From a virus (Duplodnaviria > Caudoviricetes), in the IMG/VR virus record IMGVR_UViG_3300043394_000460, positions 1-27,638 of that record: a DNA stretch of 27,638 bases. The stretch is one strand, 5' to 3'. This document shows, in pieces, positions 612 to 24,982 of the stretch. The notes under the pieces were generated by a model, which was given only the letters and a program-made list of their open reading frames with translations, did not search any database and was not told the DNA's origin. Each line of letters starts with the position of its first letter. Position 1 is the first letter of the stretch. Both the position numbers and the translations under genes were made by a program.

Positions 612-1367
612 ATGAATAAGGAAATTGCTAATTTTTTTTGGATGGGGATGTTAAGCGAATTAGAAAAATCATCAATAAATTCTTTCAAAAAAAATGGATT
701 TGAAATAAGATTTTGGTCTTACGATAATATTAAAATAGATGGGATTGAAGTGTTGAATGCTTCCGAAATTTTAAAATTAGAAGAATATAAAGATATTTCA
801 CAATTTAGTGAATTAATTGGATGGGATAATAAAGCAATTATATCTGATATTTTTAGATATAAAGTTTTATCTTATGAAGATTCATGGTGGTTTGATTGTG
901 ATGTCTTTTGTTTAAAAAATCAAGAATGGTTTTTTAACTTAAGAAAAGAAAAAGGACATGGTGAATTTATTGCAGGGTATCAATCACCAGATCATGTATA
1001 TCCAATTAATGGAGCTTGTTTATTTTTAAATAAACAACATGCAGAAAATTTATTTTTAAGATCGGCTTATATTTTAGAAAAATATAAAAATAAAATTCCT
1101 CATTGGGGTGAATTGGGACCTAAATTAATAAGTGAATATGTTGTTGAAAATAACTTATTTGATATGTGTGTTGATAGAAGTTATTTTTATGAAATTCTTG
1201 GTAGAGATGTTGATATGTTTTTAAATCCATCAAGAATTTCTGAAGCTTTAAGAAGAACTAAAAAAAGTTACGCTAGTCATGTTTGGGATTCACATTTAAT
1301 TAAATTAAACGTAGATAAGAATAATATAACTCAAGATAATTTTTTAAAGTATCTTATGTACAGATAA
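612..1367 (+). CDS. GT32-like (alpha-1,4-glycosyltransferase / capsule synthesis type) DxD glycosyltransferase
   Basis: FW..G..S..E..SI.SF N-terminus, SDIFRY..L....WWFDCD (DxD) and WGELGPKL. Confidence 0.75.
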   Translation: MNKEIANFFWMGMLSELEKSSINSFKKNGFEIRFWSYDNIKIDGIEVLNASEILKLEEYKDISQFSELIGWDNKAIISDIFRYKVLSYEDSWWFDCDVFCLKNQEWFFNLRKEKGHGEFIAGYQSPDHVYPINGACLFLNKQHAENLFLRSAYILEKYKNKIPHWGELGPKLISEYVVENNLFDMCVDRSYFYEILGRDVDMFLNPSRISEALRRTKKSYASHVWDSHLIKLNVDKNNITQDNFLKYLMYR

Positions 1368-1581: not shown

Positions 1582-2469
1582 ATGGAAAAATATTCAATAT
1601 TCCACATTGATGGAGGTATAGGAAAACATATAGCTGCTACAGCTGTAGCTAGATGTATTAAGAACAACCATCCAGACAGGAAGCTCATAGTGGTTTGTGC
1701 TTGGCCTTCTCCCTTTCTAAACCTAGACTTTATAGATAGGGTGTATAGCAGCTCTGCCACCCCTTATTTCTATCAGGATTATATAGAAGGAAAGGATTCT
1801 TTGATATTCAAACATGAGCCCTATTTTACAGCAGAACACATTCACGGTCAACTTCCACTTATTGAGAACTGGTGCAAACTGTATCAGCTTGAATACAATG
1901 GAGAAGAGCCTGAACTAGAGTTTAACCTGAGAGAAAAGCAACTAGCTAATGTTTTGTGGCAACCCACTAAGCCTATGTTACTCCTTCAGACATCAGGAGG
2001 AATGTTTGGTCAAGAGAATGCTGTTAGATATAAGTGGACAAGAGACATGCCCATTTCTGTAATGCAGGCTGTTTACGAAGAGTTTCGTCATGATTATGAT
2101 ATATTTCAGGTGACAAGACCTGGTGCTATTGCTATTGGTGGTGTTAATGTTATTGATAAGCAATACGGTATAATGGAGCTCATGACCATCCTTCTGAGAA
2201 GTGAGAAGAGATTGTTAATTGATTCATGCTTACAGCATGGTGCTGCTGCTTTAGGGTTACAGTCTACTGTGTTGTGGGTTGGAACCAATCCTAATATATT
2301 TGGTTACAAGATGCATAATAATATTATAGCCAATCAAAAACCTGAGTTCAAACTTCCTGATAGTTACTTATTTAATTATAACTTTGAAGGAACAACACAC
2401 GAGTGTCCTTATAAAGATGAGTCAGAGATGTTTGATGTGGACAATATTATAAACCAACTAAAAGGATAA
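1582..2469 (+). CDS. GT9-like (heptosyltransferase-like, GT-B) glycosyltransferase
   Basis: N-terminal GGIGK (GxGD-like) and C-terminal IDSCLQHGAAALG...TVLW (DSgxxHxAaAlg motif). Confidence 0.65.
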   Translation: MEKYSIFHIDGGIGKHIAATAVARCIKNNHPDRKLIVVCAWPSPFLNLDFIDRVYSSSATPYFYQDYIEGKDSLIFKHEPYFTAEHIHGQLPLIENWCKLYQLEYNGEEPELEFNLREKQLANVLWQPTKPMLLLQTSGGMFGQENAVRYKWTRDMPISVMQAVYEEFRHDYDIFQVTRPGAIAIGGVNVIDKQYGIMELMTILLRSEKRLLIDSCLQHGAAALGLQSTVLWVGTNPNIFGYKMHNNIIANQKPEFKLPDSYLFNYNFEGTTHECPYKDESEMFDVDNIINQLKG

Positions 2470-3287
2470 TGGAAAAACTATTTTATCAAAGTTCTCTACC
2501 AAGAGCAGGATCTACATTATTGCAGAACATCTTAGCTCAGAACCCAGACATATATGCTACACCCACAAGTGGTGTGTTAGAACTAGTGTTTGCCGCAAGA
2601 GCTAACTACACTAATTCTCCTGAGTTCAAAGCACAAGAGTCAGAACTTATGAAAAAAGGCTTTCAAGCTTTTTGTCATGAAGGGATGAAGGGATATTATG
2701 AAGCTATTACAGACAAAAAATATGTAATAGATAAGAGCAGGGGATGGGGGATTCATTATGGCTTCCTCAATTTCATTAATCCAGAGCCTAAGATAATATG
2801 CATGGTGAGAGACCTGCGTGACATCTTTGCAAGCATGGAGAAGAATTATAGAAAGAATCCTGATAAGCAGGATGATATTCTAGACTGGTCTAAGATGCAA
2901 GGAACAACAGTTCCTAAACGTATAGATATATGGGCACAGTCTCAACCTGTAGGACTTGCTATCGAAAGGTTGGGAGAGATACTTAGGATGGGAATAGACA
3001 GTAAAATGTTGTTTGTTAAGTTTGAAGATTTGTGTTTACATCCTGAATCAGAAATTATACGCATCTACAACTATCTAGGCATTCCTTATTTTAAGCATGA
3101 TTTTGATAACGTAGAGCAAGTGACTAAGGAAGATGATGAAGTGTATGGAGCATTTGGTGACCATGTTATTAGAACTAAGGTGGAACCTGTTCCTTCAAAA
3201 GCAAAACAGTTGCTTGGAAGAGATGTGACAGATTGGATATGGAGCAATTACAAATGGTTCTTTGACTACTTTAAATATATAAAATGA
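2469..3287 (+). CDS. PAPS-dependent sulfotransferase
   Basis: 5'-PSB loop SLPRAGSTLL, 3'-PB motif VRDLRDIFAS, and KFEDL..HPE. Confidence 0.9.
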   Translation: MEKLFYQSSLPRAGSTLLQNILAQNPDIYATPTSGVLELVFAARANYTNSPEFKAQESELMKKGFQAFCHEGMKGYYEAITDKKYVIDKSRGWGIHYGFLNFINPEPKIICMVRDLRDIFASMEKNYRKNPDKQDDILDWSKMQGTTVPKRIDIWAQSQPVGLAIERLGEILRMGIDSKMLFVKFEDLCLHPESEIIRIYNYLGIPYFKHDFDNVEQVTKEDDEVYGAFGDHVIRTKVEPVPSKAKQLLGRDVTDWIWSNYKWFFDYFKYIK

Positions 3288-3754
3288 TAATAGTATTATT
3301 TGGTCAGCCTCATTGTGGTAAGTCCACGCTTGCTGATATTCTTACAGTTAAACTTCCTGCAGATAATATCGATGGAGATGATTTGAGAGAGTTGTTCAAA
3401 AACAAAGATTACAGCAGAGAGGGTAGGATTAAGAATCTCAATCGTGCAAGTGATATAGCACATTACATCAATCACAAGAATGAAGACTATGTGCACGTCG
3501 TGCTATCTCTAGTATATCCATACAAGGAAGCTAGAGACTACCTGAATAGCCTTACAGAGGATGTGGTTTGGGTCTATCTCACTTATGAAGGAGAAAGAGG
3601 AAGAGAAAACTTTCATGTAAAAGATTTTGAGATTCCTACAGAAGAGCGTATATTGCACCTTGATACATCCAAAACAGATGTGTCAGAATGTATAAATCAA
3701 ATATTAACTTATGCAAAACTTCCTAGCCAAAGCAGCAGCTCCCTCGTCTTCTAA
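3284..3754 (+). CDS. cysC: Adenylylsulfate (APS) kinase-like protein, short form
   Basis: P-loop GQPHCGKST, IDGDDLR and YSREGRIKNL, typical of CysC. ATGA overlap with the sulfotransferase. Confidence 0.75.
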   Translation: MIIVLFGQPHCGKSTLADILTVKLPADNIDGDDLRELFKNKDYSREGRIKNLNRASDIAHYINHKNEDYVHVVLSLVYPYKEARDYLNSLTEDVVWVYLTYEGERGRENFHVKDFEIPTEERILHLDTSKTDVSECINQILTYAKLPSQSSSSLVF

Positions 3755-4109
3755 TTCAAAGATGTATTCAATGTTTATTGGTAGATGGCAACCTTGGCAT
3801 GCTGGTCACAGGTGGCTAATTGATCAAAGGTTGAATGAAGGAAAGAATGTTTTATTGTGTATTAGGGATGTTGAACCAGATGAAAAGAATCCTTTCACAG
3901 CTAGTGAAGTGGAAGCTAATATTAAGAAAGAACTTTGGCAGCTTGTAGGTGAGGAACGAGTGAAGGTGATCATCATCCCTGATATTGAGTCTGTTAACAT
4001 TGGTAGGGGTATAGGGTATGATGTTATAGAACATGTTCCTCCTGCAGAGATACATGATATATCTGCTACAAAGATTCGTGAACAAATGAAAGCTGAGGGT
4101 AAACTATGA
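3711..4109 (+). CDS. HxGH nucleotidyltransferase (cytidylyltransferase-like), candidate minimal ATP sulfurylase
   Basis: FIGRWQPWHAGH, NPF and ISATKIRE motifs. The substrate is inferred only from context. Confidence 0.75.
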   Translation: MQNFLAKAAAPSSSNSKMYSMFIGRWQPWHAGHRWLIDQRLNEGKNVLLCIRDVEPDEKNPFTASEVEANIKKELWQLVGEERVKVIIIPDIESVNIGRGIGYDVIEHVPPAEIHDISATKIREQMKAEGKL

Positions 4110-4339
4110 CAGATGTTAAGATAAGGTATAACACACTATGTAAAGACAACCATAGTTTTTGGAGAATTCTAATCAATGGTGTAGAACGTGTATGTTCTAA
4201 CATTGTGGTGGAGATTCCCATGCATACAACTCGTGACTTTGTTTATGATCCTAATAGAGGAGAAATGGTAGATAAACACCACTTTAGCTGTCAGGCTAAT
4301 GAGGTAATTTGGAAAGGAGACGTAGTTATAATAAAATGA
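4106..4339 (+). CDS. Hypothetical protein
   Basis: 77-aa ORF coupled by ATGA overlaps on both sides. Confidence 0.65.
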   Translation: MTDVKIRYNTLCKDNHSFWRILINGVERVCSNIVVEIPMHTTRDFVYDPNRGEMVDKHHFSCQANEVIWKGDVVIIK

Positions 4340-4551
4340 TAATAGAAAAGAAAAGACACTTAGCTAAGGCTATCTCTTATAGAATAATTAGCACACTCAT
4401 TGGATTCATTGCTATGTGGGCTGCTACCAACTCTATTAAAGTTGGAGCAGCTTTTAGCATAGCAGAACTAATTTGGAAACCTATACAATATTATTTCCAT
4501 GAGAGGATTTGGTATCGATGGATAAAATTTGGTCTAAAAGAACAGAAATAA
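4336..4551 (+). CDS. DUF2061-like small membrane protein
   Basis: KRHLAKAISYRIIST...YYFHERIW signature. Start placed at ATG 4336 (ATGA overlap). Confidence 0.8.
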   Translation: MIIEKKRHLAKAISYRIISTLIGFIAMWAATNSIKVGAAFSIAELIWKPIQYYFHERIWYRWIKFGLKEQK

Positions 4552-5629
4552 CATCTTGTGCCGTTATTGATTTTTGACACTCAAGAAATCTAGATGTGTT
4601 CTTATGTACAGGACACCAATTCCAATCTCCTTTGTCAAACTTAAAGTTAGGATTGTTCCAACATCCATAACACACTGTTTTCTTAACAGGACGTACACAT
4701 TTAAATTCATGCCACTCTTCTGAGAAGTTAGCAATCATCACTACAGGTCTACCCATAGCCCAAGCTAACCAACTTAATCCAGAGCTCAGTCCTATGAAAA
4801 AGTGACTATGAGCAATCGCATCCATAGCGCTTTGTAAAGACTTATCATCTAGAGGTTGACAGTTCTCAAATGGATTTTCTTCTTTAGAAACATTTATTAT
4901 TGTATACCCTAACTTATGTAGGAATGTAATCACATCTTGCCAAGCTTCCCTTGTCCAAAACTTACAGGCAGCTGTAGAATTGGTAGCTATTGTAACCACT
5001 TTTGAATTATAGCTTGTTTTTTGATAATGCATGATTCTAGGTCTTAATTCTTTATATTCAAGCCCTAGAATGTTTGTAGCTGTTTGTTGTAATGGTATTG
5101 TATTTGGTAGCACTGGTTCCATGCTATCTTTGTAAAACCATCCTAGATCATACTTTGCGTACAGATTATCAACTGATTCACCTGGTTTAATAAATGTGAG
5201 TTCTGGATAAGCTTCTTCAAATAGAAAGTTTTTAAATGTCCTTACGAAGACATTACAGTTGTGCTTATTTTTAAATTCTAGTGCATATGGCACCCATGCT
5301 ATTGTATCTCCTAAGGAAGAACTATCAAATGATATTAATACATTCTTATCCTTAGCATTGTATGTAACATTAGAAATTAGTGTGTCGTTCTCATACACCT
5401 CAATTCTCCACTTAATGAAATATTTAATTGCTGTTCTGGCCCACGAATTATTCTGGATTTCTGTTTTATATATTACAACTCCTGTATCATCATTAATAAA
5501 CTTTACTGTATATTTCTTCACTTCAGAACCTAAGATTTCTACAAAAGCACCGTCTGTAAAGTTGTAATGTATCTTGTTCTTTACAACGACAATTGGTGAG
5601 AGGGTTTTCTTCAGATTATTATATATCAT
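4481..5629 (-). CDS. Aah/TibC-like (autotransporter strand-loop-strand) protein O-heptosyltransferase
   Basis: SSSLGDTIAW, FIGLSSGLSWLAWA...PVVMI..FS and the four-Cys set CYGCWN...WCPVH...ECQKSIT. Confidence 0.8.
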   Translation of the reverse strand: MIYNNLKKTLSPIVVVKNKIHYNFTDGAFVEILGSEVKKYTVKFINDDTGVVIYKTEIQNNSWARTAIKYFIKWRIEVYENDTLISNVTYNAKDKNVLISFDSSSLGDTIAWVPYALEFKNKHNCNVFVRTFKNFLFEEAYPELTFIKPGESVDNLYAKYDLGWFYKDSMEPVLPNTIPLQQTATNILGLEYKELRPRIMHYQKTSYNSKVVTIATNSTAACKFWTREAWQDVITFLHKLGYTIINVSKEENPFENCQPLDDKSLQSAMDAIAHSHFFIGLSSGLSWLAWAMGRPVVMIANFSEEWHEFKCVRPVKKTVCYGCWNNPNFKFDKGDWNWCPVHKNTSRFLECQKSITAQDVISVLLDQILSIDTKSSHGNNIV

Positions 5630-6555
5630 TTTTTCAACAGTTTTAATAACAAATTCTTATTTTCATTAACATCTTCAGTGATATATGTCACCTGAGGGTT
5701 ATTATCATACATGTCTAAATAGGTGTGTAGCTTTCTAAACATGCAGGGAAGACCGTGTCCCAATGCTTCTTTAATTGATATTGGAGAGAGTTCAAATTTG
5801 GACGGGAAGTAGAACAGATCAGCTGCAGAATAGAATGTTTCTACATCGTGACGTTCTCCCCAGACAATACAGTTATCTGGCTTATTTGCCATTAGAGGCT
5901 CCCAATATTCCTTAAAATTGCCAGCCTGATTACCTACAAAGTGGAACAAGATGTTCTCATCCTTCAGTTGTCTAGCTATCTCAAACAGCTCAGCTTGATT
6001 CTTGCCAGGGGTAAATAATCCCATATGAAGGACATGTTTAACACTATCATCCAGTCCCAACATCTTTCTAGCTCTACTCTTGTCAACCACGTGATTGATA
6101 ATAGGATATTCCCAGACATCAGAATCAATCCCTAAATGAGCAAATCTTTGCCTGCTCCATTCAGAAACAAATACATATCTGTCTGGATGGTAGTAGATCT
6201 TGTCTGGATCTGTATAAGAACTGTGTGTAGTGACTACATTGAAGTGAGTTCTGTCGTCAGCAAACAGTTTGTCTAAGATTCTTGTGTGTAGAAAATCCTG
6301 AGGAATCTCCTGATAATGGATGATGTCTGGCTGGTAGTGCTCTACATATCTAAGGATCTCGTCCTGATATTCGAAATGGTGCACTGTGAAAAACTTGCTG
6401 ATTTTATTCTTTTGGACGACAAACAGGTCTCCTCCAGAGTTGGTAACATCAATGACTTCTATGTCATGTTCTGCTCCAAAATGCATTGCCTGTTGATATA
6501 AATATTGAGGCATTCCTCCTGTGGATAAGTGGGGTGCAATGTATAGAATTTTCAT
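5626..6555 (-). CDS. GT4-family (GT-B) glycosyltransferase
   Basis: PHLSTGGMPQY, GLFTPGKNQ and FPSKFELSPISIKEA (E-x7-E motif). Confidence 0.85.
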   Translation of the reverse strand: MKILYIAPHLSTGGMPQYLYQQAMHFGAEHDIEVIDVTNSGGDLFVVQKNKISKFFTVHHFEYQDEILRYVEHYQPDIIHYQEIPQDFLHTRILDKLFADDRTHFNVVTTHSSYTDPDKIYYHPDRYVFVSEWSRQRFAHLGIDSDVWEYPIINHVVDKSRARKMLGLDDSVKHVLHMGLFTPGKNQAELFEIARQLKDENILFHFVGNQAGNFKEYWEPLMANKPDNCIVWGERHDVETFYSAADLFYFPSKFELSPISIKEALGHGLPCMFRKLHTYLDMYDNNPQVTYITEDVNENKNLLLKLLKK

Positions 6556-14947: not shown

Positions 14948-15481
14948 CTATTTTCTTAATGCATTGTACACTGACAATGTCTGATCTATGTATTTGTAAT
15001 TCTTACTCTTGAGCCAACATTCATGAGCAAACAGTCCATCTGCATCATACCTCTGCAGGTTCCATCTAGAGTTTCCTAATAAGGAAACATCCATGATAAA
15101 GTTGTGTGAATCGATGTTATTTAATGTTACACTTATTCCCATTAACCTTAATATTCCTGAAGGAAATATTTGTTTGAATGATGCAAAGTCTGCATCTAGA
15201 TCCTTTATAGCATCCCATAAGTCTGGGTGTATTACAGTATCATCATCATTGAAATATATCCAACCATTTTCTACAAGATCTAATGCAAAGTTTCTCTGCG
15301 CATTACCAGATATGCTGTTCTTATCAATTACTGAATAGCATTCAGCTTGTGCTGGCTTGTTTTCAGGAATTGGTCCATCAAACACAACTATCCATCTGTA
15401 TTTAGGAAAGTTGATACTTTTAGCTATCTCTTCTAGGTTCTCTGGACGAGAACATGGTGTGATGATATTAATCAACTTCAT
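14948..15481 (-). CDS. GT-A glycosyltransferase with GT43 (glucuronosyl/xylosyltransferase)-like motifs
   Basis: ITPCSR, WIVV.D, QRNFAL and IYFNDDD parallel GT43 ITPT..R, W.VVED, QRN.AL and YFADDD. It could instead be a divergent GT2. Confidence 0.65.
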   Translation of the reverse strand: MKLINIITPCSRPENLEEIAKSINFPKYRWIVVFDGPIPENKPAQAECYSVIDKNSISGNAQRNFALDLVENGWIYFNDDDTVIHPDLWDAIKDLDADFASFKQIFPSGILRLMGISVTLNNIDSHNFIMDVSLLGNSRWNLQRYDADGLFAHECWLKSKNYKYIDQTLSVYNALRK

Positions 15482-16118
15482 TTCTGTATAAGATTAAGAG
15501 TTTATCATTGTCCCATCCTGGAGAATGTTTAAAAATATGTTCTGTCATTACAAATGTAGCTGAGCTGTAATAAGCAGAAAGCTCATTAAGCTGTTCTGCA
15601 TATTGTTGCTCAGAAGCATTTCTGAATATATCCTCAATAACAAGAATACCACCAGGTTTTAAGAACTTAGTAGCAATCTTTGCAAATCTTATTTGATCAG
15701 CAAACTCATGTGTGCTGTCTTCAACAATAATATCAAACTTACAACCAGCTCCTTCAAGAGAAACTTGAATAGACTCTTCAGCCTTTACATTCATATAATG
15801 ATATTCAGTGTTCTGAAGGTTATCAATCACCGCTTTAGTAAGTCTGTTGTGATCATATTCAAATCCATACAATTTAGCATGTGGAAAGTATTCTCTCCAG
15901 CACATCATAGATTTGTTATCTAGAATGCCTATCTCAGCTATTTCTAGGTACATATATCGTAATGGACCAAAGATAAAATCATATACAGCAGTGTAGGGAT
16001 GTTTGTGTAGTGTAGAATTTGTATTGTATGGAGATTTATCTGTACCATACAACTTCCCTAACATACAAAGATCTGTAATTGAATCACTAGAATCAATTAC
16101 AATTTTATTTATTTTCAT
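15468..16118 (-). CDS. Class I SAM-dependent methyltransferase, probable sugar O-methyltransferase
   Basis: YGTDK, EIGI, WREYFP.A, FDIIVEDSTH, LKPGGILVIED. Lies between two glycosyltransferases. Confidence 0.8.
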   Translation of the reverse strand: MKINKIVIDSSDSITDLCMLGKLYGTDKSPYNTNSTLHKHPYTAVYDFIFGPLRYMYLEIAEIGILDNKSMMCWREYFPHAKLYGFEYDHNRLTKAVIDNLQNTEYHYMNVKAEESIQVSLEGAGCKFDIIVEDSTHEFADQIRFAKIATKFLKPGGILVIEDIFRNASEQQYAEQLNELSAYYSSATFVMTEHIFKHSPGWDNDKLLILYRNEVD

Positions 16119-16857
16119 TGAATCGTTTTAACATGTCTACATAATCGTGTTTCCAATTAGGGTTGAGTTGGATTTCACCTGTAGGAATCTTTCCTTGGGC
16201 CCTTAGGTTCTCTATATGAAGACTATGTCTTTGTATAACATTAGGCTGACCAGGTTTGTCATGTCCTTGTCCAGACATGTGATAACTACGTCCTCCCCAC
16301 ATATAAAACCAACTAGCTTCGTGCTTTGGTGGATTAGCAAACAACTTTCCTCCATAAGCATGTAGATTCTGTATGAAGGTCATATCATATCCAGCATTCT
16401 CAATAGGATGGTGTCCAACAGCTTCCCATGCAGACTTTCTGAATACAACACCAGAATTCCCTATCCATGTAATATCTGTAATAGAATTACCATTATAGAA
16501 TACACCAGGATTCCAATGTAGAATATTCACATCATCTGTGAAATACTTAGCTACATTGTTAAGATGCCACGGCATAGCTACATCATCATCATCCCATTGA
16601 CAGATAATATCACCTCTACATAAGTCTGTAGCGTAATTTTCTTTCTCTCCAATTGTTCCAAATGTAAAATCCATATTATGGATTCTCACTTGGGGATGAT
16701 CAAACCTAAGTTTTTGTAAGGGATAGTCATTAACTATAACCAGCTCACAAAGATCAGCAGGGTAGTCCTGCTTGAGGAAAGAGTTTAAGCTCTCCTCAAG
16801 CATTTCCACTCTACCGTAAGTTATGCACTTTGCTGATATAAACGGTAATTTACTCAT
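16105..16857 (-). CDS. GT2-family glycosyltransferase
   Basis: ITYGR..LEESL.SFL.QDY, ELVIVND, WDDDD. Confidence 0.85.
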   Translation of the reverse strand: MSKLPFISAKCITYGRVEMLEESLNSFLKQDYPADLCELVIVNDYPLQKLRFDHPQVRIHNMDFTFGTIGEKENYATDLCRGDIICQWDDDDVAMPWHLNNVAKYFTDDVNILHWNPGVFYNGNSITDITWIGNSGVVFRKSAWEAVGHHPIENAGYDMTFIQNLHAYGGKLFANPPKHEASWFYMWGGRSYHMSGQGHDKPGQPNVIQRHSLHIENLRAQGKIPTGEIQLNPNWKHDYVDMLKRFNENK

Positions 16858-18142: not shown

Positions 18143-18385
18143 TTAATATTTAAGCGTTAATACTTTCACTACATTCATTTGTGCATTTAGGATTTCTCCT
18201 ACTGCGTGACTGAACAATCGCTGACTAAACTGCGATTGAGGCTGATTGTCATTGTGGTCATTTAATAAATCTGCTAACTCAGCGCATAGCTCTTTAGCTC
18301 TCTGCACTTTTGGATCATTACTGGGATTGAATGTTAGTCCTACTAACTTCTCTCCAAACGTCATTTCTCTTGTTGTTTGTTCCAT
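18143..18385 (-). CDS. Acb2/Tad1-hairpin-like small helical protein (candidate immune-signal sponge)
   Basis: TFGEKLVGLTFNPS.D..V..AK..CAELAD and RL...A...I..AQM..VK..T helical-hairpin pattern. Confidence 0.5.
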   Translation of the reverse strand: MEQTTREMTFGEKLVGLTFNPSNDPKVQRAKELCAELADLLNDHNDNQPQSQFSQRLFSHAVGEILNAQMNVVKVLTLKY

Positions 18386-18735
18386 TATAATTGGTTTTTT
18401 AAACTGTGAATTACTTGTTTGAATAAATAATCTTTTGCTTTTTGCTCTGTAGGAAGCTGTTCATAAGGAACATAGCAAGGATGTTCTTTAGTCTCAGGAT
18501 TCTTCACTGGACCATACTTCCATCCTTCTTCTTCTTTCTGTTTTAACCAGCTGTTGTGAGAAGCGTCTGGACCTGCATTTGGGTTTTCTAAATGAAACTT
18601 AACACCTTGAATAGCAGAACTCTTCTGCCATTCTGGAGCATTTTCCCATGTAGGTTGACTGTTATCTCCAATAGCTTCGCAATAAGCTTTGTTGATTTCA
18701 TGTGCAACTTGTGCAACATTTTCAATTGACATCAT
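18385..18735 (-). CDS. RyR-domain protein
   Basis: HNSWLKQKEEEGWKYGPVKNPETKEHPCYVPYEQLPTEQKAKD matches the ryanodine-receptor repeat motif. Start at 18735 or 18732. Confidence 0.85.
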   Translation of the reverse strand: MMSIENVAQVAHEINKAYCEAIGDNSQPTWENAPEWQKSSAIQGVKFHLENPNAGPDASHNSWLKQKEEEGWKYGPVKNPETKEHPCYVPYEQLPTEQKAKDYLFKQVIHSLKNQL

Positions 18736-18745
18736 ATTATTGGTT

Positions 18746-19405
18746 TTAATTTCCATACTCATAATCAAGTATCTTACCTACAAGGTCACTTCTGTGATTC
18801 TCCTTGAGTTTAATCCACTTGATTTCTTTAATCTTTTTAGATAGCTCGATGACATAACTTAGTCCTGTCATGCTATCTCTTGTATCCTGCTGCTCGTTAT
18901 CTCCATTGATAACAATCTTACCAGTCTTGCCTAATCGTGTTAATATGGCCAGCATCTCTGCCTTTGTAAGGTTTTGTGCTTCTTCCACAATCAACAGGTC
19001 ATCAACAGTCTTTCCACGAATGAATTGCACTGGTAGGGCTTTCACCTTACCATCTTGGATTAGTTTCTCCACTTCTTTCTTATCTGTACAACACTTGTTT
19101 AAGTTTTCTACAAATGCTTCCATGTATGGATCAAACTTCTCACTCAATGCTCCAGGCAGAAATCCAAGGCTTTTACCCACTTCAATAGCTGCTCTGGTGT
19201 TATAGATGCAATCAATTTGCTTCTTCTTAAGGAAGTCTAATGCTGCCTGGGCACACACTAGTGATTTACCACAACCAGCTCTTCCTGTAATTATAACTAT
19301 TTGATTCTCAATGATTAAGCGTTTTGCTTCTTTCTGTTCTTCATTAAGCTGTATAGCATTGATAGATTTAATGTCTGCTTTACGCTCTCTATTGGGCTCT
19401 CTCAT
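18746..19405 (-). CDS. phoH: PhoH-family ATPase
   Basis: GRAGCGKS, LGFLPG, FIRGKT, VEEAQN, LTRLG, GD..Q.D. Confidence 0.93.
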   Translation of the reverse strand: MREPNRERKADIKSINAIQLNEEQKEAKRLIIENQIVIITGRAGCGKSLVCAQAALDFLKKKQIDCIYNTRAAIEVGKSLGFLPGALSEKFDPYMEAFVENLNKCCTDKKEVEKLIQDGKVKALPVQFIRGKTVDDLLIVEEAQNLTKAEMLAILTRLGKTGKIVINGDNEQQDTRDSMTGLSYVIELSKKIKEIKWIKLKENHRSDLVGKILDYEYGN

Positions 19406-21699: not shown

Positions 21700-22254
21700 C
21701 TATAAGTTGTCTGCATACATTGTCTTATATACAAGTCTGCACATCTCTGTAAAGTATGGTTGATCATACTTATTTTTCATGATGTTTATATCTTTGTGTA
21801 CCCATTGTACATTTGCTAGAGTGTATCCTTTAGAACTATCTTTTCTGTCTAGAGAAGCTGTTGTAGAATAAGTTTGGTTTGCTCTATCTACAGAAAATGA
21901 TCTTGACATCACTAAAGGAAGTCCTGACAGAGCACATTTGTATTCTTGTTTTTCTAGAAGTTCTAAAATTTCTTCTTTTGTGACAGATACTTCTATCTTT
22001 CTTTTTTTAGCTCCTTCCAATATTCTTGAAAAAAATGTACTGCTTAAATTTCCAACACCTTTATAATGTTTTTCATTTCCACAAGATTTACAACAAGTCG
22101 ATTTTCCTCGTCTAAGAGTATTTGCTAAAATGAATGTTTCAAATCCACATTTACATCTAACATTATACTTGTACCATCTTTTATACTTTTCAACATTTTC
22201 AGAGATGACTTCCCAATCTCCAAACTTTTGTCCTATAATTGGATTAATTCTCAT
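21700..22254 (-). CDS. Free-standing HNH-type homing endonuclease downstream of nrdJ
   Basis: GQKFGDWEVI..CKCG...CCKSC N-terminus, CALSGLPL and SLDRKDSSKGYTLANVQWVHKDINIMK. Start placed at ATG 22254. Confidence 0.85.
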   Translation of the reverse strand: MRINPIIGQKFGDWEVISENVEKYKRWYKYNVRCKCGFETFILANTLRRGKSTCCKSCGNEKHYKGVGNLSSTFFSRILEGAKKRKIEVSVTKEEILELLEKQEYKCALSGLPLVMSRSFSVDRANQTYSTTASLDRKDSSKGYTLANVQWVHKDINIMKNKYDQPYFTEMCRLVYKTMYADNL

Positions 22255-22264
22255 TTTTAAATAT

Positions 22265-22309
22265 TTTGGTAGTACAGCAAATATAAATAACATTTACCGT
22301 ACTACCAAA
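22265..22309 (-). promoter_or_regulatory. Promoter embedded in a long RNA hairpin upstream of the HNH gene
   Basis: TTTG (22309-22306), 20-nt spacer, TATATTTG (22285-22278). Arms TTTGGTAGTACGGTAAATGT / ATATTTGCTGTACTACCAAA pair fully with three G-U pairs. Confidence 0.75.
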
Positions 22310-22316
22310 TTTATTT

Positions 22317-23275
22317 TTAGATATTGATTTCGCATTGGTTTCCTGCGCAGGCACTAACCTGGCCGAAATCTACTCTATCATCCAGTTCTACAACTTTTGA
22401 TAGATCTAGAGATTTTAAAGTGCTTAATCTTTTTTCATACTCTTCCTTAGAAATATCCTCGAAAGGGGCTTGGGTATAACTTCCCCCATCGTAGTTCAAA
22501 ACACTCAAGCCATTGTACACATTACGATTATTCCACATCCATGCTCCTACTACTTGCCACTCATTATTTACCAAAATATCTCTATCTGTAAGAGAAAATA
22601 CTAAATCTCCATTTTCGTTAAATGAAGCATCATATCTTCTATTCTTATCAATAGAAATTGTAGCACTTACGTTGTGTGTATTATCTCCTGTAACATGGCC
22701 AGGCTTAATCCATTCTTGAGAGAACTTCTTAACACGTTCTAATGTGTCAATGGCTGTCTCTGTCCTGAATATAGAACCTTCTGGTGCTTTAACAGGAATA
22801 CGTACACAGATGGTGTCATGAGGACGTAAAATATCATCTTCTACCAGCTCTGGGTGATTTACAATCAAGTAGCTAGCAATGTCCTCACTCTTACCAAAGC
22901 GCATTGTACGTAGGTAGTAATCATTATGCCATGCATGAATACCGCTGGCAGTTCCCAATACAAGACTGGTTGTACCAGAAGGTTTAATACAGGTCACACG
23001 AGCTGCTTCATTGGTGCCAATCATTTCACTGATCAGGCAATTGGTAGCTTTTGCCACTTCTGCAGCTGCATTTAGGTCATAATTAAGGATTTCACCAGAA
23101 CCAATACCAGTCATACCAATACCCAATAAGGCATCTTTTTGTGTGGTTTTGCTCCAGATAGGACGTAGGTAGTGAAAATCTGTAAATCCTGCCTGTAATG
23201 TACCAAAGAAAGCTGCTGCTGTGACACGGTTGTTCAGGTCTTCCTGACTCTCAATATCACTAACATTCACCTCAC
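22317..23275 (-). CDS. nrdJ: Class II (B12-dependent, monomeric RTPR-type) ribonucleotide reductase, exon 2
   Basis: LLGIGMTGI, TCIKPSGTTS, Y.QAPFE.I, C-terminal ACAGNQCEI. Splicing restores FCNLCEVN. Confidence 0.93.
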
Positions 23276-23296
23276 CATAATGTTCAATCAAGTTCG

Positions 23297-23758
23297 TTAC
23301 TCTTGATCAGAATCTTTTGGAATATTTTTTATTATCCAATTTGCAAATGATATTAATTCTTCTTCAGTGGCGTGACTTTTCATCATATTTGCTAAATGAC
23401 TAATCACTTGTATGTTATCTTTAGTATAGCCCTTTTTTGAATCTTTTCTATCTAAAGCAGGAGAGTTTTTCTGACCTCCTGATGCTCCACTTTTACAAAC
23501 TAATTCTGTTCCTAGAATTGGACAATGTTTTGGTATAATAATATCTTTAACAGTTAAATTGAAGTCTAATCCTTTTTGTTTGGCTCTTCCTTTTGCTCTT
23601 TGAAACATTTTTGATTCAGGACTTGTACACTTTACTCGTTCTGAGTTACACTTGTTACAAAGAGTTACTGTTTTAGAGGTTTTAAGAAACATTGCACCAC
23701 AATTAGTACATTCTCGTTCTGTCTCTGATATTTTATAACCTTCTCGATTTATTCTCAT
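23297..23758 (-). CDS. Intron-encoded HNH-type homing endonuclease
   Basis: CxxC..CxxC, CPILG, PALDRKDSKKGYTKDNIQVISHLANMMK. Lies within the intron, 3' of P9. Confidence 0.9.
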   Translation of the reverse strand: MRINREGYKISETERECTNCGAMFLKTSKTVTLCNKCNSERVKCTSPESKMFQRAKGRAKQKGLDFNLTVKDIIIPKHCPILGTELVCKSGASGGQKNSPALDRKDSKKGYTKDNIQVISHLANMMKSHATEEELISFANWIIKNIPKDSDQE

Positions 23759-23760
23759 AG

Positions 23761-23805
23761 TTTTGTATTTTTACAAAATTACAGAACTTGTTCGAGATTT
23801 CCAAA
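23761..23805 (-). promoter_or_regulatory. Intron-internal promoter plus start-proximal hairpin
   Basis: TTTG (23805-23802), 20-nt spacer, TAATTTTG (23781-23774). Stem TTTTGTA-AAAA-TACAAAA ends 2 nt before the ATG. Confidence 0.7.
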
Positions 23806-24003
23806 TTTTCATCAATATATTTCTATATTGTTCAGACTATATCATCACCCTTTCGGGGCCCTGTGCTTCCACTCACTTGAGTGTACGTCTTTCGACTAGT
23901 CGTTGAACCTTCCTATTTCTAGGCTCGGCTGCTGATTGTCTTCACCATTATGTGGTCAGAGTTCCCAGCAATTCTCAGGGTTTTAAATCTCCATGAGTAG
24001 TTT

Positions 24004-24982
24004 AGAGATTACAGAACTGGAATGGACGCAATCCAATCTCACAACATGGGTTGGTTCCCCAATCCTTATTGTTAGTCCAGTAGATTCCTGGTTCACCACT
24101 TCCACTTGCTTCTATTCTCTTCCAAAGGGCCATAAACTCCTCTTCACCAACATTTCCTCTTTCCAATACAGCAGAGTTGTTACTTCTACCTCTTTGTTCA
24201 TTCAGCTCCCACCAGTTACCGTATTTACAGGTAATCATTTCTTCATCATCGTGGCTGAATAAAGAGATCATTGCACTCCTTCTGATACCACCAGCTAATA
24301 CGGAATTAGCAATATGGCACATAATGTCATGGCATTCTAATGGACTAAGCTTAGATCCATTCTCCTTACGCTCCATAATAGCCTCAATATGAGCTAAACA
24401 TAGCTTAAGTGGCTCTGGACCAGGTGCTTTACCACCAGCTGTAACTAGTCTGGCTCCTTTGTGCCTGATTGCTCTGAAGTCAAACTTAGGCTTATGGCCT
24501 CCTTCAAAGTAGAATTTCATAAGGACCTTCACAGCATCTGCCCATCCCATGATGCTATCTTCAATTAAATACGTACGATTCTTGGGGTTTTCTACCCTTA
24601 CAACTGTAGGTAGTTGTTCCACATGGTGTTTCTGTACGGAGAATCCTACACCACTTCCTCCTAATAATAGGAACATTGTCTCGCTAAAGCTGTATAGACT
24701 GTCTACAGGTAGGTAGGCACAATTGTATCCTCTTGCATTATTCACTTCCATTGCTGGTCCAGCGAACTGTAGAGCTCTCATAGAGGGTAACACCTTCTTC
24801 TGTCTGATGAACACGGTGGTCTCTTTAATCATTGCTTCAAGCTTAGGATACTTCCTAATCATCATCTGTTCATACCTGTCAACAATTTCATCCCATGTCT
24901 CTCTTCTTTTGAGCTCAGGAACATACTTTGCATACTTACTGAAAACCGTCAGCTTACTTAGCGCTTCCAATCCTAAATCCAT
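24004..24982 (-). CDS. nrdJ: Class II ribonucleotide reductase, exon 1
   Basis: KYA....RRETW, LPSMR, YNCAY, GSGVGFS, GGIRRSA, GEPG, TNPCCEI. Exons of 979 + 959 nt give 646 codons including the stop. Confidence 0.95.

Follow-up and report, generated by a model that had tools for sequence, protein, structure and literature searches.

The window analysed here, the whole 27,638-nucleotide stretch of a tailed phage (IMG/VR record IMGVR_UViG_3300043394_000460, Caudoviricetes), carries at positions 1582..4551 a cassette of six open reading frames (ORFs). All six were confirmed on the + strand, and their five junctions overlap by 1, 4, 44, 4 and 4 nt, in agreement with the tightly overlapping run reported in a preliminary description made from the sequence alone. 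The first gene (1582..2469, 295 aa) encodes a glycosyltransferase assigned to the GT9 fold by its model. It is followed by a 3'-phosphoadenosine 5'-phosphosulfate (PAPS)-dependent sulfotransferase of the Sulfotransfer_3 family (PF13469; 2469..3287, 272 aa), a short adenosine 5'-phosphosulfate (APS) kinase with a truncated lid (PF01583; 3284..3754, 156 aa) and an HxGH nucleotidyltransferase, hereafter called NT (3711..4109, 132 aa). The last two genes encode a hypothetical protein without family match, an optional member of the module (4106..4339, 77 aa), and a small membrane protein of the DUF2061 family associated with sulfate-activation genes (PF09834; 4336..4551, 71 aa), whose start is most likely the ATG at 4336 and not the TTG at 4309. 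From its CTP_transf_like domain, its gene context and structure models, NT is a candidate minimal ATP sulfurylase, predicted to form a strand-swapped homodimer. Phage markers found elsewhere in the window are an amidase endolysin, an HNH-split ribonucleotide reductase, RecA/UvsX, PhoH and a dUTPase. The two best run matches of the window are freshwater metagenome runs from one sample, and no RNA dataset is found among the runs listed as matching it.

Two families of ATP sulfurylase are recognised, Sat and CysDN. The CTP_transf_like domain was detected in NT with an E value of 6.6e-5, its HAGH motif occupying residues 30-33. No match was obtained to Sat (PF01747, at E <= 0.01; 132 aa for NT compared to about 390 for Sat) or to CysD (TIGR02039). 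The protein also scored below the cut-offs for archaeal nicotinamide mononucleotide (NMN) adenylyltransferase (NMNAT; 42.3 against 127 bits for PRK01153, 36.4 against 181.2 bits for TIGR01527) and for the generic TIGR00125 domain (25.8 against 27.7 bits), and no profile of the TagD/RfaE type exceeded its cut-off. When a profile built from 63 NT sequences was compared with PDB sequences, the archaeal NMNAT 1f9a came first (E 5e-15); no Sat chain was present among the best 60 of the 65 matches, nor among the Foldseek matches listed. The NT model (mean predicted confidence, pLDDT, 91.4) gave Z scores of 9.9 with NMNAT, 9.6 with PPAT, 6.8 with TagD and 6.2 with HldC, and the best Sat structure, 1v47, reached a Z score of 7.5 (root mean square deviation 3.7, 114 residues aligned). 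The comparison with Sat had been proposed in the preliminary description, which took NT for a stripped-down Sat. With Sat missing from the sequence and Foldseek matches listed and ranked under NMNAT and PPAT by structure, this origin was rejected. The nearest kin by sequence and fold are the archaeal NMNAT/NadM proteins, and a sulfurylase function of NT would therefore be a case of convergence within the superfamily. Judged from its sequence, NT is not a member of the Sat, CysD or NMNAT families, because it misses their cut-offs, lacks about 26 residues of NMNAT and matches the Sat motifs only partly.

The NT family is large: 7,687 relatives share about its length, 1,137 cluster representatives match at E <= 0.001, and the names of its homologs in the source records are mostly NMN adenylyltransferase or cytidyltransferase-like. 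NT shares with archaeal NMNAT/NadM (1f9a, 1ej2, 2qjt) the GRxQPxHxGH and NP(F/Y)T motifs. Unlike these proteins, it carries the family-specific R52-D53 and GRGxGY and is shorter by about 26 residues at an extra helix and strand, a gap located between strand 3 and the SxTxxR helix and seen against three archaeal NMNAT matches as well as against 1f9a; the sequence ESVNxGRGxGY is found there instead. In NMNAT, the extra helix and strand segment binds nicotinamide. A quick tree placed the NT family apart from three archaeal NMNATs, with fused and separate forms interspersed (65 of 147 branches open and one row, P0144, mislabelled), and a separate full-length NMNAT was matched in three of the five NT-bearing archaeal genomes tested, one of them over the cut-off. 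These matches and names, together with the TibC-like heptosyltransferase gene that adjoins the cassette, could be accounted for if NT were an NMN adenylyltransferase, or a heptose-1-phosphate or glycerol-phosphate nucleotidyltransferase serving the nearby glycosyltransferases, within a NadR-like pair of kinase and transferase. We nevertheless regard this as extremely improbable, as the scores lie far under the cut-offs (42 against 127 and 36 against 181), the segment between strand 3 and the SxTxxR helix is missing, carriers keep a separate NMNAT and the constant partner of NT is an APS kinase and not a gene of NAD or sugar metabolism.

Conserved residues in the NT family are G24, R25, Q27, H30, G32, H33, R52, P61, P90, G98, R99, G102, Y103, S118, T120, I122 and R123; among them H30, H33, S118, T120 and R123 are each at least 90% conserved in the 63 sequences. 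According to the available text of two reports (PMC6607087, PMC3779200), the Sat motifs are QXRN, HXXH, VGRDHAG and SGTxxR. NT resembles Sat (PF01747; 1v47 from T. thermophilus, 1j70 from yeast) and the Sat-APS kinase and PAPS synthase fusions (2gks, 1x6v) in the superfamily fold, the HxxH and SxTxxR motifs and, in part, a GR loop, and differs in its size, in having GRWQ for QxRN and GRGxGY for GRDHAG, and in a predicted swapped strand that would complete the active site. The monomer model shows no strand at residues 91-104. Prediction with two copies of NT gave a dimer score of 0.79 compared to 0.00 for the best control, with a pLDDT of at least 86 and runs agreeing in at least 96% of contacts; 20 of 30 solved pairs and 1 of 23 single chains attain the mark set for this score, counts that are only rough for the alignment used here. 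The best predicted inter-chain contacts join residues 92-96 to residues 19-22 and 104-108 of the partner. Residues 92-96 are thereby predicted to form a swapped fourth strand completing the partner's sheet and to place G98-R99 at the position of the Sat GRD loop. In this placement, which comes from the predicted dimer contacts, G98-R99 and G102 are conserved relative to VGRDHAG and the D-H-A residues are not.

Viral matches to NT number 544, many of them near-duplicates, and the gene neighbourhood in phages was analysed in the 80 best. An APS kinase gene lies upstream of NT in 79 of these loci, at 55 nt or less in 72, and the single miss is at a contig edge. The other cassette members are far rarer (34 loci with DUF2061, 18 with the sulfotransferase family of the window, 16 with the GT9-like family and 6 with the 77-aa gene), so the conserved unit is the kinase together with NT and not the set of six genes. 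Loci were also collected with the GT9-like gene (46), the kinase (32) and the sulfotransferase (best 80 of 109) as queries, these sets overlapping, and NT was always accompanied by the kinase (13/13, 30/30 and 51/51, respectively). The five-gene set of GT9-like gene, sulfotransferase, kinase, NT and DUF2061 recurs in 38 of the 80 phage loci collected via the sulfotransferase, and for this reason the gene order is not due to chance. Single-sequence probes for Sat, CysD and CysN found none in 158 related phage loci, and neither Sat nor CysD was found in five phage genomes of 93-100% estimated completeness. Of these five genomes, two encode a Sulfotransfer_3 protein above the cut-off, and a further two show no more than a weak match to Sulfotransfer_2.

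Natural fusions of NT to CysC, for which the preliminary description had proposed a search, were found in both orders: 41 kinase-first and 1 kinase-last among 61 longer homologs, and 20 kinase-first and 8 kinase-last among 150 listed representatives. The five environmental fusions tested all exceed the TIGR00455 cut-off for APS kinase. PHROG 10255 is itself a kinase-NT fusion, the two halves of which are matched by the two genes of the window. Twelve records of cultured phages match NT with 33-41% identity over about 80% of the protein. A scan of viral contigs with a full-length bacterial CysC as the query gave no match.

The kinase itself matches PF01583 with 39.5 bits (cut-off 21.1, E 7.4e-10) and falls below the TIGR00455 cut-off (38.3 against 138.7 bits); all of its 10 PDB matches are APS kinases or PAPS synthases. 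Among 25 kinase sequences G12, K13, D30-G31-D32, R35, R48 and R105 are invariant. The region of D30-G31-D32, R35 and R48 maps to D480, R483 and R497 of M. tuberculosis CysC, so that the phosphosulfate-binding residues of that enzyme are kept, two arginines among them being invariant. The score below NCBIfam cut-offs and the loss of part of the lid could mean that the kinase has drifted away from APS and that the phage pair activates another oxyanion or small phosphate, e.g. a sulfonate, a phosphonate or a sugar phosphate. No sulfotransferase-like gene is found in 34 of the 80 phage NT loci, and none is named among the annotated neighbours of the NT match in three cultured-phage records; both observations speak for this reading. 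Such a substrate is nevertheless very unlikely, given that both phosphosulfate-binding arginines are invariant, that the sulfotransferase gene overlaps the kinase gene in the window and that close relatives stand beside full-length CysC in bacteria.

Several further features of the NT loci may be mentioned. In Salvo (L081:7578-8324) and DLP_6 (L082:7590-8321), a kinase-NT fusion whose kinase part is below the TIGR00455 cut-off is surrounded by small hypothetical genes, and the annotation shows no sulfotransferase in its vicinity. In seven sequences (P0139, P0142, P0145-P0148, P0155), NT is in frame behind homing-endonuclease-like domains, which suggests, as far as their sequences can tell, endonuclease insertions at the kinase-NT junction. 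In loci L050, L051, L054, L056, L072 and L078 the kinase-NT pair has as neighbours 2OG-Fe(II) oxygenases, a family with weak similarity to sulfotransferases, and a protein whose end is rich in Cys and Trp and in L072 carries a Hint domain.

GTDB species genomes gave 177 matches to NT, of which the 80 best served as the cellular loci; some of their contigs may be phage sequences binned into metagenome-assembled genomes (MAGs). NT-bearing cells include Marinimicrobia, Bacteroidota, Nitrospirota, Omnitrophota, Acidobacteriota, Patescibacteria and archaea. An APS kinase was seen in 70 of the 80 loci, as the next gene in 48, fused to NT in 13 and elsewhere in 9, and none was seen in the remaining 10; frequent neighbours are CysQ and members of the Pfam sulfotransferase families 1, 3 and 5. 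Neither Sat nor CysD was detected in 41 of the 50 NT-bearing genomes searched, out of 78. Of 41 genomes related to that of a marine flavobacterium, 29 have cysC; the gene following it is NT in 8 of these and cysD in the other 21, and the two never occur in one genome. CysD was found in none of the eight NT genomes, nor was Sat over its cut-off. A comparison drawing on 16 flavobacterial loci showed that the same chromosomal slot, with the same flanking gene families, harbours cysC-NT in 7 loci and an inverted cysC-cysD-cysN in 4. On the far side of this slot (downstream) lies cysQ, and a flippase and sulfotransferases are present in most loci. The seven NT-linked cysC genes compared are 70-90% alike, and the flavobacterial replacement was therefore probably one cassette exchange.

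A second replacement was observed in Nitrospirota. Sampling at order level around a Nitrospiraceae MAG gave 81 genomes, with a cysH-type reductase in 78, CysD in 74 and NT in 5. These five NT genomes are among the seven without CysD, and the other two also have no reductase match. The readable operons of their relatives start with sulfite reductase and cysH and end with cysD and cysN, in some cases with an AnPRT-like gene in between; those of the five NT genomes consist of sulfite reductase, cysH, NT and the AnPRT-like gene, with no APS kinase and no cysDN. Both of the reductases tested that precede NT score over the APS-reductase cut-off and under the one specific for PAPS reductase. NT thus pairs with either an APS kinase or an APS reductase, and APS is the metabolite common to both partners. 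This replacement, confined to one clade, is weaker evidence than the flavobacterial one. In a sample taken at family level (71 genomes), NT was found only in the centre genome. Taken together, the fusions in both orders and the position of NT in place of cysD/cysN in two bacterial lineages support, at the level of gene content, the proposal of the preliminary description that 3711..4109 supplies APS.

From these comparisons we conclude, with a probability of roughly 0.8, that NT is an APS-forming minimal ATP sulfurylase, non-orthologous to the known ones and representing a third lineage nearest to the NadM-type NMN adenylyltransferases. Several observations weigh against this conclusion. The QxRN motif of Sat is absent, G24-R25-W26-Q27 standing at its place, and both sequence and fold are nearer to NMNAT and PPAT (Z 9.9 and 9.6) than to Sat (Z 7.5). 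The lid of the window's kinase is about 19 aa shorter than that of three cellular CysC proteins and has no equivalent of Lys562, although R105 is kept, and lid closure is reported in the text available to us as essential in M. tuberculosis CysC (PMC4373884). The kinase occurs without NT in 0 of 13 loci of the GT9-like set, in 8 of 59 of the sulfotransferase set and in 2 of 32 of the kinase set, where one of the two lies at a contig edge; some phages can therefore do without NT. Only 27 of the 80 phage loci (46 when two weakly similar families are included) and 33 of the 80 cellular ones have a Pfam-anchored sulfotransferase in view. Each of the two replacements was, as far as gene comparisons indicate, probably a single event. 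Sat or CysD is present in 9 of the 50 NT-bearing genomes searched, which are incomplete MAGs or single-amplified genomes, and a Sat-APS kinase fusion is encoded elsewhere in all five Nitrospirota NT genomes, Sat being found in 3 of the 76 others. The QxRN asparagine is lost in four of these five fusions and GRDH in three; the fusion of genome G057 is intact, and for this reason Sat alone could explain the loss of cysDN there.

The lack of QxRN, the carriers with Sat or CysD and the intact fusion of G057 would also fit a sulfate-activation accessory that binds or turns over APS, PAPS or 3'-phosphoadenosine 5'-phosphate (PAP), or that stabilises the kinase, the APS being delivered by the host or by a different sulfurylase. 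APS kinases carrying a catalytically dead sulfurylase-like domain have indeed been described (bioRxiv 10.64898/2026.04.02.716029). An accessory role is nonetheless unlikely: such a protein would not be expected to exclude cysD from the position after cysC (8 against 21 genomes), its catalytic HxGH and SxTxxR motifs are nearly invariant, and it also pairs with an APS reductase in an operon free of kinase. As a separate observation, the Nitrospirota Sat-APS kinase fusions L164:5950-7665, L165:5434-7173, L166:5783-7522 and L167:4999-6738, from four related genomes, bear differing substitutions in QxRN, HxxH or GRDH, a pattern which suggests that their sulfurylase domain may be decaying.

With NT as an ATP sulfurylase, the cassette would function as follows. 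NT would convert ATP and sulfate into APS and pyrophosphate and would probably feed the overlapping APS kinase, giving the phage sulfotransferase its own PAPS. In the predicted homodimer, residues 92-96 would complete the partner's sheet and so bring the G98-R99-x-x-G102 loop to the position of the Sat GRD loop. The HxGH and SxTxxR motifs would bind ATP and pyrophosphate, as elsewhere in the superfamily, and R25, R52 and the backbone of G98-G102 may hold sulfate. Being unfavourable, the reaction would be drawn forward by the phage kinase and the host's pyrophosphatase. The sulfated product could be a glycan that the glycosyltransferases encoded nearby build on a tail fibre or another virion protein. 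With less assurance, we also lean towards a wider view, in which a third ATP sulfurylase family, a strand-swapped dimer of about 130 residues derived from NMN adenylyltransferase, is present in thousands of aquatic phages and in streamlined marine bacteria and archaea, replaces CysDN outright, and makes of many phage cysC genes one half of a PAPS synthase for the sulfation of virion glycans.

Like Sat and PAPS synthase, NT is partnered with, and fused to, APS kinase, and the reaction is likely the same. NT also resembles CysD/CysN, the GTP-coupled enzyme, in occupying the same slot after cysC or in the sir-cysH operon, with a near-exclusive distribution in two lineages; unlike CysD/CysN it has no GTPase partner, about 130 aa replacing about 720. 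NT probably represents a known reaction carried out by a new enzyme family. A literature search whose scope left out subscription journals and supplements retrieved no description of the NT family. In rhizobia, nodPQ found with nodH or noeE constitute a dedicated PAPS supply inside a glycan-tailoring cluster, NodPQ being of the CysDN type. The window shares this arrangement of a PAPS supply within glycan-tailoring genes, except that its sulfotransferase is far under the NoeE cut-off (39.7 bits against 500). Two studies (PMC10914622; bioRxiv 10.1101/2021.01.05.425418) report cysC in phages and assign it, as an auxiliary gene, to assimilatory sulfate reduction; the kinase gene they describe, in large freshwater and marine phages, is of the kind found here. 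Their main texts contain no mention of sulfotransferase, nucleotidyl or cytidyl; their supplements, which lie outside this search, could bear on novelty. Unlike that interpretation, the context described here points to PAPS for sulfation and not to cysteine synthesis. If the proposed activity is correct, NT would be a third ATP sulfurylase, about one third the size of Sat, that fills an apparent gap in cysC genomes without sulfurylase. Thousands of "NMN adenylyltransferase" labels would then be corrected, phage cysC would be recast from a booster of assimilation to a part of a phage PAPS supply, and a compact PAPS route would be available for enzymatic sulfation.

Regarding the product, the sulfotransferase matches PF13469 with 66.4 bits (cut-off 27, E 5.7e-18) and PF00685 with 49.7 bits, over the cut-off. 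Its nearest solved chains are tyrosylprotein sulfotransferases, at E values of about 1e-4, too weak to name the acceptor. No Pfam (including PF01075), NCBIfam or PHROG match was obtained for 1582..2469, and a profile of this gene had no match among PDB sequences. Its model (pLDDT 83.5) gave GT9 3tov as the top Foldseek match (E 1.1e-10), with WaaF 1psw, TibC 4rb4 and WaaC, and PF01075 is present on 26% of the members of one of the related Atlas cluster sets; the label GT9-like given earlier holds by fold (GT-B, nearest GT9 3tov) and not by profile. Convergent to the cassette and overlapping it by 71 nt is a gene on the - strand at 4481..5629, which is like O-heptosyltransferases of the Aah/TibC autotransporter family (TIGR04414, 283 bits against a cut-off of 200) and gives a weak hhalign match to 1582..2469 (E 0.0011, probability 20%). 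Next to it, on the same strand, lies a GT4-type glycosyltransferase gene (5626..6555, PF00534, E 1.2e-12). No gene for ADP-heptose synthesis was found among the window ORFs scanned. In the 80 sulfotransferase loci, a long ORF rich in G, S and T, like those of fibre-like genes, is present in 51 and a sheath-like start in 20, counts obtained without a control; no fibre gene adjoins the cassette in the window, which begins 1.6 kb upstream of it. With the TibC-type gene alongside, a sulfated glycan on a virion protein is given about even odds as the target, the least certain step of the proposal; tyrosine sulfation and a host-surface glycan are the alternatives.

The earlier view of a self-contained operon is overstated. 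No CysQ and no sulfate transporter were found among the 49 window ORFs scanned, further glycosyltransferase genes surround the cassette, including the convergent Aah/TibC-type gene, and 17 of the 46 loci collected with the GT9-like gene consist of this gene and a sulfotransferase, with no kinase or NT in view. By contrast, the sulfate-related role suggested for the DUF2061 protein (PF09834, E 6.5e-14) is supported by context: a DUF2061 gene lies in a canonical cysQ-DUF2061-cysC-cysD-cysN operon (L169), and one representative (P0259) fuses an NT domain to DUF2061. No Pfam, NCBIfam or PHROG match was obtained for 4106..4339.

Upstream of the cassette, positions 1-1580 form an AT-richer block of three ORFs, one of which (612..1367, + strand) encodes a GT32-like glycosyltransferase (PF04572, E 1.8e-5), a variable neighbour outside the core. 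The GC content at third codon positions is 0.135 for the GT32-like gene, 0.12-0.21 for the upstream block and 0.28-0.33 for the cassette. The slot upstream of the cassette is variable, since the DNA before 1595 differs in a sibling contig of the same sample. A chimeric join near 1580 was considered on account of the step in composition; one contig, possibly from the source sample's run, bridges 1-1644 with zero differences. A scan for promoters and terminators gave values near those of shuffled sequences (43 against 32.8 +/- 6.0 and 6 against 3.4 +/- 1.8, respectively) and was not used as evidence.

Elsewhere in the window, three features of the - strand were noted. A second small cluster (14948-16857), away from the sulfation cassette, consists of GT2, methyltransferase and GT2 genes. 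At 18143-18768, beside PhoH, lies a gene for a RyR-domain protein (E 2.9e-11) by a weak match to the Acb2/Tad1 hairpin (E 0.0012, below the cut-off). Finally, an HNH/endonuclease VII gene separates the two parts of the ribonucleotide reductase (phrog_367; 21700-24982), and a second such gene follows downstream; the reductase is possibly split by an intron.

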